Source: Candidatus Woesebacteria bacterium (lineage in GTDB: Bacteria; Patescibacteriota; Microgenomatia; UBA8517). Taken from it: a stretch of DNA of 64,000 nt. Position 1 is the stretch's first letter; each line of letters opens with the position of its first letter. The stretch is from contig CP066686.1 in NCBI GenBank assembly GCA_016432365.1, positions 273,771 through 337,770 of the forward strand, written 5' to 3'. The position numbers and the translations under genes are program-made. The notes beneath the pieces are model-generated. The model worked only from the letters and a program-made list of their open reading frames with translations, was not told the origin of the DNA and ran no database searches. Below are positions 7,084-60,115 of the stretch, piece by piece.

Positions 7084-7706
7084 ATACGATTGGTCAAATC
7101 ATAAAAAATGCCCGTGTCGTAAAAGAATATTCTTTGAGCCGCCTCGAGGAAATTACAAAAATTAAAAAAGGCTTCATTTCTTCAATTGAAGAGGAAAATT
7201 GGGAGGAACTTCCCCCTTTCCCGACAGTGTTGGGATTCGTGAAGAGTATTGCCGGAGCACTTGAAGTGGACGAAAGAACTGCGGTGGCAACTTTAAAGAG
7301 GGACTATCCGCCAAAAAAATTGAGGATCAATCCTAAACCGGATGTTTCTCGGAAGTTTGTCTGGAGTCCAAAGTTGACTTTTATTATAGGTGTTGGACTT
7401 GTCTTTACAGTAATATTTGGATATTTGGCATTTCAATATACCAGATTTATTTCACCTCCGGCACTAAGTGTAGATAGTCCTGTTGAAGATCAAATTGTGT
7501 CAGGAAATAACGTGTTAGTTTTTGGTAATACGGATGTAGATGTAAAAATAACTGTCAATAATCAGCCGGTATTGGTTGACAATGATGGAAAATTCTCTGT
7601 AAGTATGGAAGTTGTGCCCGATACAAAAGAGATTGTAATTCAAGCAGTTTCAAGATCTGGTAAAATGAATGAAGTAAGGCGAAAGATACTAGTTACTAGT
7701 AACTAG
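7080..7706 (+). CDS. RodZ-like HTH membrane protein
   Basis: N-terminal HTH (XRE-like) segment, single TM and a C-terminal beta-rich domain. Overlaps the ftsK stop codon. Confidence 0.6.
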   Translation: MNTIGQIIKNARVVKEYSLSRLEEITKIKKGFISSIEEENWEELPPFPTVLGFVKSIAGALEVDERTAVATLKRDYPPKKLRINPKPDVSRKFVWSPKLTFIIGVGLVFTVIFGYLAFQYTRFISPPALSVDSPVEDQIVSGNNVLVFGNTDVDVKITVNNQPVLVDNDGKFSVSMEVVPDTKEIVIQAVSRSGKMNEVRRKILVTSN

Positions 7707-12283: not shown

Positions 12284-12402
12284 ATCAAGACTCCAGAAAG
12301 TCGGAAGACTCAGAATACTCGGTTGATCGGTGCGTCAGAATCTCTGGTTTCTGATTTTCTGAGTCTCTGAGTTATCTGAGTTTTCTGATAGACTGTTTTG
12401 GT

Positions 12403-13514: not shown

Positions 13515-13579
13515 AAAACTTGACCCACCTTCGCCAAGACTTCGTGGGGTCTGTATATTGCTTGTAGAGTCTATGGAAT

Positions 13580-13608
13580 TTGACTTTTAGCCTCAAATAT
13601 GCTACACT
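13580..13608 (+). promoter_or_regulatory. sigma70-like promoter TTGACT-17-TACACT
   Basis: Seen directly. Would give a roughly 350-nt leader before the cold-shock-domain gene. Confidence 0.4.
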
Positions 13609-13965
13609 ATCGGATACTTGAATTCCATATTTTGCTTGGGATTTAGGTTCAATTAGCTCATTAATCCCGTACAGAATTTACTTTGCGCCACGAACTACGT
13701 TTGTGCTCGCAAAGGGCTTTTTTACGGGATCTGCAGTGCTAGTCGCACTTTGACAAAAGAGAGATAAAGAACTCCTTTTAGCCTTGTTCCAGCAATAATT
13801 TCGCATTCGCCTTTTCAGCACTGTTCGTACACGGCTCTTGCCAAATTCTGACGGGACTTCGCTTCTGCATGCTTGAAGGCAGCACTCCGCGCATCTGTTA
13901 CAACTCGTGCTCGGAACGCTGCTCATTCAAGCGGCCTACCAATGGGTAGAAAAGGAGTGAGTGAT

Positions 13966-14583
13966 ATGGAAACCGGAACGGTAAAATGGTTCGACGCCCG
14001 GGAAGGTAAAAAGTTTGGCTTCGTGACGGCTGAGGATGGGAAAGAAATTTTCTTCCATTACAATGACGGAAGACCCATTCAGGTCAATGTCACAAAACGC
14101 CGAGTCGAGTTTTCCGACCAGCCTACGTTTCAGACCAAAGACGGAGTTCGCCGTCTTCGCGACCCCAAGCCCGGAGACAAAATCGTTTTTGTCAGGACGC
14201 AGGGTTACAAGGGTGATAAGGCATCGCCTTGGTCTTTCAAGTCGATCCACGACAAAGCAATCGACCAAATTGCCAAGTTGCCGGAACCGACTGTGTACCG
14301 AGCCCTCGAGACGATGAATAATGTCGGCGACGTGGCCGGTGAACCCAAGGTGTTGTGGGAAGGGTCCGATTTGGAAGCGCTCCTTGCCAAGTACCCAGTA
14401 CCTTCTGGTAGGCAGTCTCCCGGTTCCGATCCACTGATTCCGTATTATTCGGATTCAGACAATATCTTTGAGATTCGGCACTGGTTCGAGAAGAAGGTTG
14501 GAGAAATCTGGGAGCAATGCCCCGATCCACGCTTGCTGTCGGGAGCAAACCGACAGTTCGAACGTATCACCAACCGTTGGTAA
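13966..14583 (+). CDS. cold-shock domain (CspA-like) protein fused to an uncharacterised 140-aa C-terminal domain
   Basis: METGTVKWFD...KGFGFV RNP motifs of the CSD. Strong SD AAAAGGAGTGA 6 nt before the ATG. Locally GC-rich. Confidence 0.75.
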   Translation: METGTVKWFDAREGKKFGFVTAEDGKEIFFHYNDGRPIQVNVTKRRVEFSDQPTFQTKDGVRRLRDPKPGDKIVFVRTQGYKGDKASPWSFKSIHDKAIDQIAKLPEPTVYRALETMNNVGDVAGEPKVLWEGSDLEALLAKYPVPSGRQSPGSDPLIPYYSDSDNIFEIRHWFEKKVGEIWEQCPDPRLLSGANRQFERITNRW

Positions 14584-14918: not shown

Positions 14919-15869
14919 ATGAAAAAGTTATTTCTTTTGCTTCTAGTTCTAACTTTGGTTGCGGCAGCATCTATTGTTTGGTTTTACATCAATGTCCAAC
15001 CCGCAGGTACAAATAAAAACTTCAAAAATTTTCTTATCGAAAAAGGTGCTTCGGCTTCCAAAATTGGAACCAACCTAGAACAGGCGGGTTTTATTAAAAA
15101 TGCTTTGGCCTTTAAAATTTATGTAAAGTTCAGCGGACAGGATGGAAAAATTTTTCCCGGTGAATATAGACTTAATAGCGCCATGTCTATGTTCCAAATT
15201 GTCAGTCAACTGACCCGCGGACCGCTTGAGCTTTGGGTAACAATTCCTGAGGGGCTTAGACGAGAGGAGGTTGCTATGAGGTTTACAACAGGACTTGATC
15301 GGGATGCTGTGTTTACCAATGAATTTCTGCAAGCCTCGAAAAACTATGAGGGTAAACTCTTTCCTGACACCTATCTTTTTCCTAAAGACGCGAGCGCTTC
15401 TTCGATTGTAAACAAAATGACCAAGACCTTTGATTCAAAAACTTCAGGTCTTGTTGCGGGACCGGACTTAACATTCAATCAAAGAATTGTCTTGGCCTCA
15501 ATTCTTGAAAGAGAAACTAAAACCAGTGCAGAACGTCCAATTGTCGCCGGGATAATGATGAATAGAATTAGAGCGGGGATGCCTCTACAGGTAGACGCAG
15601 CAGTTCAATACGCTGTTGGAACATCCAAAAACTGGTGGCCTATATTGTCTCGAGATGACCTTCAAATCAATTCGCCTTTTAATACCTATAAATTTTCCGG
15701 ACTTCCCCCTGCCCCGATCGCAAGTCCGGGAATTTCAGCCCTTGAGGCGGCTTTTAGTCCGGCCTCTACCGAGTACTGGTACTATATACACGATAAAAGC
15801 GGAATAATTCATTACGCCGGGACTCTTCAGGAGCACAACGCAAACGTTGCGAAATATTTAGGAAAATGA
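14919..15869 (+). CDS. mltG: endolytic murein transglycosylase MltG (YceG-like)
   Basis: N-terminal TM followed by a YceG-like domain with the conserved acidic catalytic region. Confidence 0.85.
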   Translation: MKKLFLLLLVLTLVAAASIVWFYINVQPAGTNKNFKNFLIEKGASASKIGTNLEQAGFIKNALAFKIYVKFSGQDGKIFPGEYRLNSAMSMFQIVSQLTRGPLELWVTIPEGLRREEVAMRFTTGLDRDAVFTNEFLQASKNYEGKLFPDTYLFPKDASASSIVNKMTKTFDSKTSGLVAGPDLTFNQRIVLASILERETKTSAERPIVAGIMMNRIRAGMPLQVDAAVQYAVGTSKNWWPILSRDDLQINSPFNTYKFSGLPPAPIASPGISALEAAFSPASTEYWYYIHDKSGIIHYAGTLQEHNANVAKYLGK

Positions 15870-16118
15870 AGCTCTCAAACCTGACGGTCGGAGTATCTTC
15901 TCCCTAACTTCGTCGGGAGTGGAATCCCTTCGAAGCGGAACATTTTCGCTTATCCGCGGGCTAACGCCCGGGGTATTTGCGAAGGGGGATAAACCATATA
16001 TTTCCCCCTTGACCCTGCCACTACACTTACTTGCTCCCAAATACTACGTGTTTGCGTCGCAAGAGCGTGAGTGCGTGGTCTGCGCCCCAGCCAGAAACCT
16101 TGCAGTTCTAACTGGGGC

Positions 16119-16146
16119 TTGACATGAGGCTAAATACGGCTATAAT
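16119..16146 (+). promoter_or_regulatory. consensus promoter TTGACA-16-TATAAT for rpoBC
   Basis: Seen directly about 90 nt upstream of the rpoB ATG. Confidence 0.5.
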
Positions 16147-16234
16147 CCTCCCTAGGCGTACATGAATAGGTACGCTCGTCTCGCTTCGAATCTGCGGGCC
16201 TTTAGTGTTTAAAAATATAAAAATACCCACAAAA

Positions 16235-19200
16235 ATGACGTCAAAAAATATTCGCCGCAATTTCGGCAAGGATGAAAAAAACCTACCGATAATCAACCTA
16301 TCTGAAGTACAAACAGAAAGTTGGAAATTATTTTTGGGCGAGGGTATTAAAGAAGAGCTGATTCAAGTTTCCCCAATTGACGATTTTACAGGTAAAAATT
16401 GGCAACTCTCTCTTGGTGATCACTCCTTAGGTGCTCCGACAGTTTCTCCAATGACAGCCCAGAAAAAAGGAATCACTTATGCATGTCCTTTAAAAATCCG
16501 AGCTACCCTTGTAAATAAAAGAACAGGTAAAGAAGTAACCCAAGATGTGTTTTTGGGTGATATTCCTCAGATGACAACCCGTGGTACGTTTATAGTTAAC
16601 GGAATAGAACGTGCCGTTATCAATCAGATTGTAAGGTCCTCAGGAGCTTATTTTTCGGGCGAACTTGATCCATCAAGCGGCAGGGTGCTTTATAAGGCGG
16701 AGATTAGACCCTTACACGGCAGCTGGCTTGAGTTTGAAGTTACCAGAGGAGACTTGATTTACGCGAGAATTGACCGCAGGAGAAAAGTTTTAGCTACAGT
16801 ATTTTTGAGAGCTATAGGAGTCGAATCTGATCAAGACATTACCAACGCCTTTGAAGCGATGGATAAGAATCCGGATCATAAATATATTGCGGCAACACTT
16901 GCAAAAGATTCAACAAAGACCAGAGAAGAAGCTTTAATTGAGGTTTATAGAAAAATGAGACCCGGTGAACCCACAGTTTTGGAAAATGCTGAGGCTCTTT
17001 TCCAAACACTGTTTACAGACGGTAGAAGATATGATTTAGGAAAAGTTGGTAGATTTAAAATAAACAAGCGCTTGGGAGTTAACCTTCCAAACGACAAATC
17101 TACTTGGGTTCTTACCAAACAAGATGTAGTAGCTGCAATAAATTATCTTATCGGGCTTCAAAATGGAGTAGGAAAACTTGATGATATTGACCATTTGAGT
17201 AACCGAAGACTCAGGCGTGTCGGAGAGCTTGTGGCAGTAAACGCTTTCCGTGTCGGTCTTTTAAGACTCGAAAGATCGGTCAAAGAAAAGATGTCTTTGA
17301 TTTCACCCGACGATAAGCCCCTTCCCGCGAATCTTATTAATGCCCGTCCTTTGATAGCTTCACTTAACGAGTTTTTCAGAAGCAACCAGCTTTCAACAAT
17401 TTTAGATGACACGAATCCTTTGAGCGAGGTAGACAATCTTAGGCGTGTTTCCGTTCTTGGAACAGGTGGAATTAATCGTGAGCGCGCCAGCTTCTCTATT
17501 CGTGATGTCAACGCCTCACAATACGGCCGAATTGACCCGGTAAGATCACCTGAAGGACCAAACATCGGACTTGTTACTTACCTTGCTCTTTACGCCAAAG
17601 TTGACGAATTTGGTTTTATTCAAGCCCCGTATAGAAAAGTAGAGAAAGTGGGTAAAAAAGTAAAAGTAACAGACGAAGTTGTGTATCTTACTGCGGACGA
17701 TGAAGAAGATAAATATATAACTCACTCAGGAGTAAGTGTTGATAAAGATGGTTTTATCACAGATAGCAGAGTTCCGTTAAGATACATGGGTAAGTTTATT
17801 GAAGGCGCAGCGGAACTTGTTGATTATATTGACGTCACTCCAAGAGAGGTAGTCGGAGCCTCAGCCTCACTAATTCCTTTCTTGGCAAATGACGAGGGAA
17901 ACCGCGCCCTTATGGGAAGTAACATGCAATGTCAGAGCGTCCCGCTAGTTAACCCCGAGTCCCCAATTGTCGGAACAGGAATGGAAAGGACAATTTCTGA
18001 AGGTATGCAAAGAGTTATCCGCGCGAAACATGCCGGAGTTGTTGAATACATTGACGGTGAAAAGGTAATCGTTAAACTGGATAAAAAAGCTGAAACAGAT
18101 ACGACAGTTGATATTGAAGACACCGAAATTATCGATGGAGGCAAGAAAGAAGTCTACCATTTAACCAAATTTAAACGTACAGCCCACTCCACTGCATATA
18201 ATCAAATCTCCCGAGCTGTCCCTGATCAAAGAGTTGAGGTCGGAGATTTGTTGGTTGACGGTCCTGCAAGCCAGGATGGTGAGCTTGGACTTGGCCGCAA
18301 TCTTGTTGTCGCTTACGCCAACTTTGGTGGTTATGGTTTTGAGGACGCCATATTAATTTCAGAAAGACTTGTTAAAGAAGATTTGCTGACTTCAATTCAC
18401 ATCGAAGAATATGAGGCAGAGGTCGTTGATACAAAACTTGGTCCCGAAGAGATTACAAACGATATTCCTAATGTTTCTGAATCCGAACTGGCCAATCTGG
18501 CCGGAGATGGAATAGTAATGATTGGGGCGCAAGTTGGGCCGAATGACATTTTGGTCGGTAAAATAGCTCCCAAGGGTGAAACAGAACTTACTTCAGAAGA
18601 AAGACTTCTTAGAGCAATTTTTGGTGAGAAGGCCCGCGAAGTGCGAGATACCTCTCTCCGTGTTCCCCATGGCGAAAAAGGAATAGTGGTTGATGTCCAA
18701 ACACTTGATCGTGATAAAGGCGACGAGCTTGGGCCGGGGGTAATACAAAAAGTAATAGTCAGGGTTGCTCAAATCAGAAAAATTACAGTTGGAGATAAGG
18801 TGGCCGGACGCCATGGTAACAAAGGAGTTGTTGCCAAAATGATGCCTGTTGCAGACATGCCCCATCTTGCCGACGGAACTCCCGTCGATGTAGTTATTTC
18901 TCCTCTTTCTGTTATTTCCCGTATGAACCTTGGTCAGTTGATGGAGACACATCTTGGTTGGGCTTTGTACAAAAAAGGTGAAAAAGCAGCCCTTCCCGTT
19001 TTTGACAAAATTGGCGGGGACGCGATAGCCAAGGAATTGGAAAGCGCAGGTCTTGCGGTAAACGGTAAGTCACGTCTCTATGACGGTAGGACAGGTGAGG
19101 CTTTTAAGGAAGATACGGTAGTTGGAGTTGGATACATAATGAAGCTTATCCACATGGTGGAGGACAAGACACACGCCCGTTCAACCGGTCCATACTCGCT

Positions 19201-41691: not shown

Positions 41692-41903
41692 AAAACCAAA
41701 GTACAGTTGAAGTTGATGGGGCCGTTTTGCAAGCATTGCCCAATACGATGTTCCGGGTACAGCTTACAGATGGCAGACTCATCCTGGTAACTTTGAAGGG
41801 GAAAATGAGGAGGGCTTATGTTAGAATATTCCCCGGCGATAGAGTGAAGGTGGAAATGACGCCGTACGACGAGAACAGGGGAAGGATAATATACAAATAT
41901 TAA
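41688..41903 (+). CDS. infA: translation initiation factor IF-1
   Basis: S1-like OB fold, 71 aa. Confidence 0.9.
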   Translation: MKNQSTVEVDGAVLQALPNTMFRVQLTDGRLILVTLKGKMRRAYVRIFPGDRVKVEMTPYDENRGRIIYKY

Positions 41904-41964
41904 AAATCAAAAATAAAAAAGTAAAAATATTTTTGATATTTGATATTTAATTTTTAATATTACG

Positions 41965-42078
41965 ATGAAGGTTATTAGTTCGATTAAAGCACGATGTAAA
42001 GATTGTAAGATTGTTAAGCGCCACGGGGTGCTTTACATCGTTTGTAAAAACCCGAGGCACAAACAACGCCAGGGATAG
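41965..42078 (+). CDS. rpmJ: 50S ribosomal protein L36 (C4 zinc type)
   Basis: [37 protein letters not shown]. Missed by the ORF track because it is under 60 aa. Confidence 0.85.
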
Positions 42079-42150
42079 TAACTAGAAATTAGAAACTAGA
42101 CACTAGTTAAAAACTAGCTTCTAGCTTCTAGCATCTAATAGCTAGAATTT

Positions 42151-54446: not shown

Positions 54447-54542
54447 TCATTTTACTTGACCCCAGTCACAATTTCGCATTCGCCTTTTTAATTCTATTCG
54501 AATACGGCTTATGCCAAATTATAACGGGGCACGGCAATTCAC

Positions 54543-54571
54543 TTGACAATAATTGATATTTGCCGTATTCT
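54543..54571 (+). promoter_or_regulatory. promoter TTGACA-17-TATTCT for hup; -10 box 10 nt before the ATG
   Basis: Seen directly. Confidence 0.45.
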
Positions 54572-54857: not shown

Positions 54858-55003
54858 ATTCGAAATACGAAGCTTCAAACGCGAAACAATATTTGAATTC
54901 TAAATCCGAATGTTTAAAACATTAGAATTTATGATTTTGAATTTGTTTAGAATTTCGCGCTTCGAATTTCGGATTTGGAAAGTATACGTAGTATACTTGA
55001 CGT

Positions 55004-59562: not shown

Positions 59563-59781
59563 AAAAAATCCCGCATGTGCGGGATTTTTGTACTCTAGAG
59601 AGTAGTAAGCCATTTTCGCTACGCTCAAATGTCTTGGCTTCTCTCTAGTGCACGATACGAAAAACCCCTCCTTATGGAGGGGTAAATCGTACTCTAGAGA
59701 GTAGTAAGCAAATCTTGCTACTCGTTATCCATAAAAAATCCCACGAAAGTGGGATTTTATATACTCTAGAGAGTAGTAAGC
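59563..59781 (-). repeat. three tandem modules of (rnpB 3'-terminal 21-mer GCTTACTACTCTCTAGAGTAC plus intrinsic-terminator hairpin)
   Basis: The antisense 20-mer TACTCTAGAGAGTAGTAAGC occurs identically at 59591-59610, 59690-59709 and 59762-59781. Each copy is flanked by a hairpin of different sequence that conserves the stem (ATCCCGCA/TGCGGGAT; CCCCTCC/GGAGGGG; ATCCCAC/GTGGGAT) next to a T-run. Confidence 0.7.
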
Positions 59782-60115
59782 CAGGTTCTGTTAGGCCCTG
59801 AACAAATTTCAGGGTTTGACGATCATCCATCTAACGCCCTCGAACTTCGGAACGTGGCTCGATTACTCGAGCCGTTGGTAAAGCTCCTGTAACGTTCCTT
59901 TCGGAGGTTGCAGCGGGGAGGATTGCCTCTTTTCACTCGTTTTTCCCTACCTTTAGGGTAAGAAAATCGACATAGTCTCTGTGGCTCTAACTGGCTACAT
60001 TCCTTGCGGAACATATCCCAGGCTTACGCCTGGCACCCTGCTTTTCTGCTGCCTGGACTTTCCTCCCCTCATAGCCTTGCGGCGACGTGGGGCGATCATC
60101 CTTTCTCTAGAGTGA
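59762..60115 (-). ncRNA. rnpB: RNase P RNA (bacterial type A)
   Basis: The reverse complement carries GAGGGGAGGAAAGUCCAGGC (P4 5' strand, CR-I) and AGCAGGGUGCCAGGCGUAAGCCUGGG (the P10-P12 region). It also has AGGUAGGG.AAAA.GAGUGAAAAG (CR-II-like) and a P18 hairpin followed by ACAGAACCUGGCUUAC (CR-V, P4 3' strand). P1 pairs ACUCUAGAGA with UCUCUAGAGU. Confidence 0.8.

Follow-up and report, generated by a model that had tools for sequence, protein, structure and literature searches.

The rpoB gene of a Candidatus Woesebacteria bacterium, preceded by mltG, lies in a 64,000-nucleotide stretch of contig CP066686.1 that is called the window below. The mltG stop codon is at 15867-15869 and the rpoB start codon (ATG) at 16235, and the 365 nt between them hold a structured block (15870-16118) that a first-pass annotation had presented as one candidate non-coding RNA. 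Our analysis points instead to two unrelated insertions, part A (15870-15995) and part B (16008-16124), with ancestral sequence between them. Part B belongs to a family of structured elements bounded exactly by CTTGAC hexamers, the right one of which doubles as the -35 box of a promoter. Bacteria of the Candidate Phyla Radiation (CPR, or Patescibacteria) have small genomes, in which mobile DNA and regulatory RNA are considered scarce. In this organism and its relatives, a folded element is found repeatedly on -35 boxes of core-gene promoters (rpoBC, lexA, hrcA-grpE-dnaK, greA) without destroying them.

The block is indeed GC-rich and structured, as had been noted. Its GC content is 0.53 (0.50-0.55 in 200-nt windows) versus 0.416 for the whole window, which is the highest value among the 23 intergenic regions. 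The region 15860-16125 folds with -101.6 kcal/mol on the plus strand (z = -4.65) and with -109.8 kcal/mol on the minus strand (z = -5.39), and on each strand 0 of 200 shuffled sequences folded as well. Only the RNase P RNA region exceeds it in structure among the intergenic regions of the window. All the hairpins listed previously can be read in the sequence: CTTCG..GGGA-GTGGAA-TCCC..CGAAG at 15908-15935, GCGGA..TCCGC at 15936-15957 (the minimum-energy fold favours instead CGGGC-TAAC-GCCCG within 15946-15982), AAGGGGGA-13 nt-TCCCCCTT at 15983-16010, and CCCCAG..CTGGGG at 16085-16117. The near-match TTCGTCGGG to the tmRNA motif is also present (15910-15918). The rpoB promoter at the end of the block, TTGACA-16-TATAAT (16119-16146), has a consensus score of 12/12. 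The statement that the block contains no open reading frame (ORF) is not literally correct, since mechanical ORFs of 67 aa (15919-16122, plus strand) and 60 aa (15858-16040, minus strand) cover it. A protein-coding reading of both was rejected: tblastx gave no matches, and the indels and length differences among members of the part B family do not come in multiples of three, so that no ORF is conserved.

Signal recognition particle (SRP) RNA, 6S RNA and tmRNA had been named as candidates for this block. With Rfam 15 at gathering thresholds, the sole match in the whole window is the RNase P RNA gene (59761-60111, minus strand). At E <= 10, both strands of 15700-16300 gave only three chance matches, all to eukaryotic families, and ARAGORN reported one tRNA-Pro and no tmRNA. 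An SRP, 6S or tmRNA gene is thus not supported. A housekeeping RNA so divergent in CPR bacteria that the Rfam models miss it could be considered, given the GC richness and strong structure of the block, and such RNAs can diverge: the RNase P RNA of the window itself reaches 105.9 bits for a threshold of 100. However, nothing matched on either strand even at the relaxed threshold, and the fold is made up of independent hairpins in a row, with no closed rod as in 6S RNA and no SRP helix 8 motif. The block moreover consists of two unrelated pieces, one of which has two copies in the window and more before other genes. Its absence at the same locus in the closest relatives makes a housekeeping gene unlikely, and with all these points together we regard this explanation as extremely improbable.

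Relatives were retrieved with the N-terminal 400 residues of RpoB, which gave 80 loci (numbered with the prefix L), all from Candidatus Woesebacteria, Microgenomates or Patescibacteria. Four more, which give the ancestral state, were obtained through MltG homologues, and the homologue searches covered the rpoB neighbourhoods of these genomes. The mltG gene is upstream of rpoB in about 75 of the 80 loci. In the nearest relatives its stop codon abuts the -35 box of rpoB, and the spacer of ~115-140 nt consists of the promoter and a conserved two-hairpin leader. Alignment with the six nearest relatives leaves a clean gap of ~245 nt opposite 15870-16118. In L203, L204 and L205 the stop codon is directly followed by TCC(C/T)CCTTGAC, and L004 reads TAG-GTCTATAT-TCCCCCTTGACA at the same site. 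The promoter and leader downstream of the block are orthologous to those of the element-free relatives. To judge from these alignments, the whole block is extra DNA inserted at an ancestrally near-empty mltG-rpoB spacer. Within the block, positions 15996-16013 (plus strand) match the empty sites and correspond to the ancestral spacer with the left CTTGAC (16008-16013), i.e. the original -35 context. The ancestral piece ATATTTCCCCCTTGAC (15997-16013) matches ATATTCCCCCTTGAC in L004 and TCCCCCTTGAC in L203. As this piece of the ancestral spacer is kept inside the block, parts A and B are two insertions. The mltG-rpoB position appears to be a recurrent insertion hotspot in Woesebacteria. Nine loci (L015, L009, L037, L041, L046, L047, L050, L072 and L081) have 0.8-2.4 kb of extra DNA there; small ORFs are found in this spacer in L044 and L045, and an ATPase-like gene in L041.

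Part B (plus strand) reads CTTGAC, core, hub, P5 hairpin and CTTGACA, for a net insertion of 110 nt. It is a canonical member of its family, with 98.6 bits for R1, the covariance model of the core. The core (16011-16080) is a long hairpin found both in the minimum-energy fold and by RNAalifold, with four helices. P1 joins GACC (16011-16014) to GGUC (16077-16080), and P2 joins 16016-16026 to 16067-16075. A 3x3 loop with UUA (16027-16029) opposite AGC (16064-16066) separates P2 from P3, in which CUUGC (16030-16034) pairs with GCAAG (16059-16063), and P4 is a hairpin at 16037-16054. The hub GGTCTGCGCC (16077-16086) leads into the P5 hairpin, GCCCCAG...CUGGGGC (16084-16118). The right CTTGAC (16118-16123) overlaps the -35 box TTGACA (16119-16124), followed by the 16-nt spacer and the -10 box TATAAT (16141-16146). 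The UUA/AGC loop, a UCCC junction and the hub GGUCUGCGCC are unchanged in the six canonical copies. P5 forms a hairpin in every copy, with variable sequence and a size of about 18-70 nt. The GUC of the hub has two possible partners, the left GAC (in P1) or the right GAC (as an extension of P5). When the right ends are folded alone, all six adopt P5 with an additional GUC/GAC helix of 3 bp beyond a 3x2 loop, in the order GUC, 3-nt spacer, P5, 2-nt spacer, GAC.

Covariation between copies supports this fold. From six sequences, RNAalifold predicts the helices P1-P4 with 22 pairs, of which four are compensatory. In an alignment of eight members, which was fitted to the model and thus somewhat favours the structure, 93.8% of the cells are paired and changes on both sides occur in 14 of 26 pairs, a result equalled by none of 500 shuffles. 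Pairing falls to 29-52% when the partner columns are slid. This pattern of substitutions indicates that the fold of part B is under selection. The main rival to an insertion element is a functional structured RNA, either a small RNA or a cis-acting module for stability, processing or protein binding on read-through or 5'-UTR (untranslated region) transcripts. Selection would then keep part B at core transcription and stress promoters, and its patchy distribution would reflect gene gain and loss instead of transposition. We consider this possible, although on the unlikely side. The strong covariation is in its favour, and the invariant UUA/AGC loop and hub suggest a binding site. U.G pairs in P1, P3 and P4, which would be C.A mismatches on the other strand, favour the plus strand, the sense of the downstream gene; the P5 of the window itself pairs better on the minus strand. 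This strand evidence is mild and applies equally to single-stranded DNA.

Other copies were found in two ways. A blastn comparison of the insert with the 80 loci gave a single relative, at 2699-2846 of L055, directly upstream of the rpoB promoter. The RpoB of L055 is only 72% identical to that of the window and the upstream gene is different. A metagenome scan with the pattern AAGAGCGTG-N4-10-GGTCTGCGCC retrieved 120 loci, five of which contain the full element (L087, L108, L121, which is the same as L108, L154 and L166; four distinct copies), while the 115 chance matches to the 19-nt seed served as negative control. Members have the layout CTTGAC-C, long hairpin, GGTCTGCGCC, variable P5 and CTTGAC(A/T), with a total of 100-149 nt. 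They score 77-109 bits with R1, for which there is no other match at E <= 10 in the 80 rpoB loci, and no score above 16.6 bits was obtained in 713 kb of unrelated metagenome DNA sharing the seed. No relevant Rfam family matches any of five member loci at E <= 10. In every canonical copy CTTGAC is present at both boundaries. Conservation stops exactly at these two hexamers, beyond which unrelated flanking sequence begins, and inversion at the termini is limited to CCCC...GGGG. The core of the window copy is 82-87% identical to those at lexA, greA, hrcA and in L154 versus only 65% to the L055 copy, and the rpoB copies were thus not simply inherited in place. The P5 of L108 is an inverted core-like module (R1 35.7 bits), and L108 is the only member with long inverted modules. 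A CTTGACC...CTTGACA pair at 5370-5420 of L207 lacks the hairpin architecture and was rejected as a member. No match to the element was found in IMG/VR (three patterns), among INPHARED phages or among PLSDB plasmids.

The window also contains a diverged second copy (13656-13741, plus strand; R1 38.6 bits, E about 4e-9), located inside the long 5' UTR of csd. R1 copies in this genome are thus two in 74 kb, both within the 64-kb window and none in the next 10 kb. The second copy was missed by a search for exact and near-exact repeats within the window, and blastn of the insert against the window returned only the insert itself. The element breaks assemblies just before rpoB. Two Logan contigs with identical mltG both end at 16054, the end of the first 31-mer that is wholly within the shared core, from which we infer another copy in the sample. 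L003, with an RpoB N-terminal 400 aa that is 99% identical, begins inside P5 of the same element. The element can also mislead annotation into an RNA gene call.

Three independent pairs of filled and empty sites show the same junction, and the empty sites hold one (C/G)TTGAC. The rpoB promoter is filled in the window and empty in L004, L203, L204 and L205. The lexA promoter of L087 is filled (...gccaCTTGAC[element]CTTGACATCTTCGGGTAAAGTTTGTACAAATA), and the corresponding sites are empty in L212/L213 (...ggtaCTTGACTTGTTCGGGTATTATTTGTATAAATA) and also in L208. The rpoB promoter of L055 is filled and that of L056 empty (agcgggaGTTGACAacttg). At the rpoB promoter of L060 a 34-nt mini version is found, CTTGAC[CCCACACAAT...ATTGTGACTTGAC]T. 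The right CTTGAC is part of TTGACA-16-TATAAT before rpoB in the window and in L055, of TTGACA-17-TACAAA before lexA in L087 (uvrB diverges on the other side), of TTGACA-17-TATTTT before hrcA-grpE-dnaK in L108, where a CIRCE-like (controlling inverted repeat of chaperone expression) sequence TTAGCAGTC follows, and of TTGACA-17-TATTAT before greA in L166, after a tRNA-Glu gene. In L154 it is part of TTGACT-17-TAGCCT, with a -10-like hexamer and no clear gene. Five of the six canonical copies thus have, 75-120 nt downstream of the right CTTGAC with its -10-like hexamer at 16-17 nt, a gene in the same direction. The element-free relatives have a -35 box of their own at this position, and the element thus lands on an existing promoter and restores it rather than creating one. 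The window contains 31 CTTGAC hexamers, only about six of them intergenic.

These junctions bear on the functional RNA explanation. The orientation of the element is always that of the downstream gene, and the L166 copy directly follows a tRNA gene, with which it may be co-transcribed; copy 2, inside the csd 5' UTR, is presumably transcribed. On the other side, nearly all relatives lack the element at the syntenic site, the CTTGAC junctions being precise, and its conservation ends exactly at the two CTTGAC hexamers. There is no conserved upstream promoter, P5 lacks a U-tract although the genome uses canonical terminators, and there is no Rfam match. An intrinsic terminator at P5 was rejected on this same ground. 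An internal promoter starting from the left CTTGACC was likewise rejected, as by eye no copy has a -10-like hexamer 16-18 nt downstream of it. The suggestion of a novel RNA in the first-pass annotation is therefore upheld as far as a conserved element with covariation in the 3' half of the block is concerned, and not for an RNA gene with its own promoter and terminator: the element rather resembles an insertion at -35 boxes.

The same junctions could be the footprint of site-specific recombination, with CTTGAC as the att-like crossover core of an integrase (tyrosine, serine or IS110-type) and the ~110 nt as a remnant or miniature cassette. In support, the same hexamer is directly repeated at the two junctions of every copy. 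In a circular form, the ends would meet as GGGG-CTTGAC-CCCC (GGGGCTTGACCCC), where short inverted arms would enclose an asymmetric spacer, much like a recombinase core. The mltG-rpoB space also holds 0.2-2.4 kb of extra DNA in several relatives, and the L166 element lies after a tRNA-Glu gene and an apparent duplicated tRNA 3' fragment. Nevertheless, no integrase is found near any copy, the targets share only CTTGAC(A/T), which is very short for an att site, and the conserved long hairpin would be left without a role. We judge this explanation improbable. In L166 (1797-1863), tRNA-Glu(ctc) is followed by a GGGGC-AA-GCCCC hairpin and then by the apparent tRNA 3' half (T-arm CTCGGTTCAAATCCGAG and acceptor strand TGGGGTCA), just before the element, and TGGGGTCA is the reverse complement of the element start TGACCCCA.

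A sister family, family 2, has the termini and layout of part B with a different interior. One copy (54455-54548, plus strand; repeat D10) is upstream of the HU gene and is 79% identical to a second copy at 13775-13860, in the csd 5' UTR. The two align with a score of 78, versus 16.9 +/- 2.8 for shuffles. The layout is CTTGACCCCAGT..., long hairpin, ...ACGGGG, second hairpin, CTTGACA. The HU promoter, TTGACA-17-TATTCT, is only about 10 nt before the ATG. To keep the termini and swap the interior is typical of mobile DNA and not of an RNA family, and this is a further point against a functional RNA. The csd (cold-shock-domain) gene, with its ATG at 13967, has a ~350-nt 5' UTR packed with inserted modules, behind a promoter TTGACT-17-TACACT (13582-13610) that is conserved with L024. 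L024 shares the leader blocks flanking copy 2 but lacks the segment of the csd 5' UTR with copy 2 and the adjacent family-2 copy. A minimal hairpin CTTGACCCAC...GTGGGGTCTG with family-like termini (13519-13553, plus strand) shows resemblance only, as its R1 score of 7.1 bits is not significant. In L203, L205 and L206, ruvX is followed by mltG and no csd gene is called between them; the csd region itself may be an acquisition.

Part A (15870-15995, plus strand) lies between the mltG stop codon and the ancestral ATAT-TCCCCCTTGAC, and is absent from L004, L203, L204 and L205. It contains hairpins at 15908-15935 and 15946-15982, and its positions 15983-15989 form the 5' arm of a third, in which the new sequence AAGGGGGA pairs with the ancestral TCCCCCTT (16003-16010) as 3' arm. 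Together with the ancestral spacer (15870-16013) the three hairpins give z = -3.5. Part A is joined to mltG in two independent Logan assemblies and is therefore not an assembly artefact. No homologue was found in 213 loci, INPHARED phages, PLSDB plasmids or IMG/VR. The idea of a degenerate part B copy was rejected, as the alignment is no better than with shuffles and R1 gives no match, and there is no significant similarity of part A to copy 2 or family 2. Part A thus appears to be a second structured insertion unrelated to part B.

We favour the reading, which we hold to be slightly more probable than even, that part B is a non-autonomous, structured miniature insertion element of a Woesebacteria-specific family that targets -35 hexamers, part A being a separate insertion. 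What the data show directly is the presence or absence of the element with exact junctions, the existence of the family, its conserved fold and its association with promoters. Such an element would integrate exactly at CTTGAC, which in intergenic DNA mostly represents the -35 box of a sigma-70-type promoter (cTTGACa), and the right CTTGAC would then sit 16-17 nt from the resident -10 box. With this correct spacing the promoter would be rebuilt, and insertion would thus be tolerated even before rpoBC, lexA, hrcA-grpE-dnaK and greA. Insertions inside genes would be lost to selection, leaving the copies at promoters. Both part A and part B are probably transcribed only as read-through from mltG. 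If the element is mobile, promoter hexamers would serve as safe havens, a targeting strategy that we had not seen described, and its movement would indicate an as yet undiscovered enzyme in these organisms. As a functional RNA or DNA structure, it would instead be a module that key Woesebacteria promoters have in common on their upstream side.

How the hexamer could be recognized is suggested by the hub, whose GUC (in GGGGUCUGCG) would pair with the GAC of CTTGAC, either at the left junction (P1) or at the right end (P5 extension). A guide-like hub of this kind would resemble the reading of target and cleavage sites through internal guide sequences in IS200/IS605 elements. In IS608, cleavage and target sites are recognized by pairing with guide sequences located 5' of subterminal hairpins, and insertion takes place 3' of a fixed motif that remains on the left side; this motif is TTAC in IS608 and TTGAT|G in ISDra2 (PMC5934647). 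It may tentatively be proposed, with a probability that we place rather low, that a site-directed enzyme acts in trans and moves part B as a single DNA strand. Similarly doubtful is the view of the family as a new kind of self-targeting mobile module in CPR bacteria, in which a ~100-nt cassette consisting solely of structured nucleic acid reads CTTGAC through its own hub, inserts and regenerates the promoter. If this were true, essential-gene promoters would be safe landing sites, and the module could insulate or tune them. We thus describe part B as working like a target-specific, non-autonomous insertion element, and do not file it as a proven IS200/IS605 derivative.

Among known systems, part B shares several features with the palindrome-associated transposable elements (PATEs) derived from IS200/IS605, which move by the "peel and paste" of IS608 and ISDra2. 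It is inserted 3' of a short motif, CTTGAC, that is retained in the left flank like TTAC or TTGAT|G (PMC5934647). It has no real terminal inverted repeats, hairpins are present at both ends, and the empty sites appear precisely restored. The GUC just 5' of the right-end hairpin is complementary to the terminal GAC, which is the IS608 order of guide GR, hairpin IPR and cleavage site CR. The structure also appears strand-specific and tolerates G.T pairs. Unlike in PATEs, neither TnpA nor TnpB was found (the scan for TnpA covered ten ORFs of the window), and copies differ in their right hairpin. The 6-nt target coincides with a promoter element, and the 3' end of the element repeats the target exactly. 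At the left end, the same GUC closes the long hairpin by pairing with GAC (P1), which places GAC inside a stem, and this is not the IS608 arrangement.

A second comparison is with miniature inverted-repeat transposable elements (MITEs) and transcribed palindromic repeats, such as the Correia elements of Neisseria and the enterobacterial ERIC/IRU sequences (enterobacterial repetitive intergenic consensus/intergenic repeat unit). These are also intergenic sequences of 100-150 bp without ORF that form long hairpins when transcribed, supply or border promoter elements, and show presence/absence polymorphism between strains. They have clear inverted repeats of 20 bp or more at their termini, and the duplications that they cause are short and non-specific, for example TA. 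Our family, in contrast, is invariably flanked by CTTGAC, has inverted termini of only 4-5 bp, and lies at a fixed distance from the -10 box. With respect to a MITE of the DDE type, part B has the small size, the lack of an ORF, the flanking direct repeat and the filled and empty sites. It lacks terminal inverted repeats of ~10 bp or more, having CCCC...GGGG only, and a repeat of fixed sequence is unusual for a target-site duplication.

IS110/IS492-type elements with their bridge (seek) RNAs also insert target-specifically without terminal inverted repeats and with a short identical core on both sides. They likewise carry a structured non-coding RNA with internal loops at the element end, and promoter elements split across the junction. 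Here, by contrast, no DEDD recombinase gene accompanies the element, only housekeeping ORFs being next to the copies, and the element is far smaller. An IS110-like route is possible. Part B further recalls the repetitive extragenic palindromes (REPs) and bacterial interspersed mosaic elements (BIMEs) associated with RAYT (TnpA-REP) (PMC8266576), in being short, GC-rich, repeated and palindromic outside genes. For REPs, an HUH enzyme that works on hairpins of single-stranded DNA is the presumed agent of spread. REPs are 20-40 nt, very numerous and mostly downstream of genes, unlike the members of our family, which are 100-149 nt, rare, have a multi-helix core, and are located immediately upstream of promoters at -35 boxes.

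Several points weigh against an insertion element. Neither a transposase nor a recombinase was found among the ten ORFs of the window that were scanned, and no longer element with the same ends was seen. Conserved ends would be expected if a transposase bound them; here P5 is not conserved, and the inverted termini comprise no more than CCCC/GGGG. The left-end geometry is unlike that of IS608, as the target GAC is inside a stem and not upstream of a guide followed by a hairpin. The compensatory changes, the G.U pairs of the plus strand and the constant orientation fit a functional RNA equally well. R1 copies amount to two in 74 kb of this genome and to only one in 560 kb of rpoB neighbourhoods from 80 other species. 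Finally, short direct repeats may yield precise deletions, and some "empty" sites could thus be losses.

Outside the insertion, the rpoB 5' leader (16148-16234, plus strand) contains two hairpins (GCGUAC..GUACGC and CCCGC..GCGGG) and then CCUUUAGUGUUU. Its sequence is highly conserved in 21 relatives and shows little covariation, and Rfam gives no match; it may act as an attenuator or be bound by a protein. The rpoB gene of these organisms has no rplJ-rplL in front of it. Strong folding was also noted at 41692-42150 (z = -6.9, minus strand), 12284-12402 (z = -5.2, plus strand) and 54858-55003 (z = -5.5, minus strand), with no Rfam match at gathering thresholds. Near the RNase P RNA gene, a 33-nt repeat (GTACTCTAGAGAGTAGTAAGC...) is present in three copies at 59590, 59689 and 59761 (region 59590-59793), the last of which overlaps the 3' end of the RNase P RNA, and a Logan contig of the same organism starts at about 59907, inside this gene. 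An intergenic motif, CTAG(T/A)TACTAGTAACTAG, occurs at 7689, 13092, 34323 and 42075, and similar "taactaat" and "aacctataacctataacc" runs are found upstream of lexA in L087 and L208. This motif may be a terminator-like or spacer repeat typical of these genomes.

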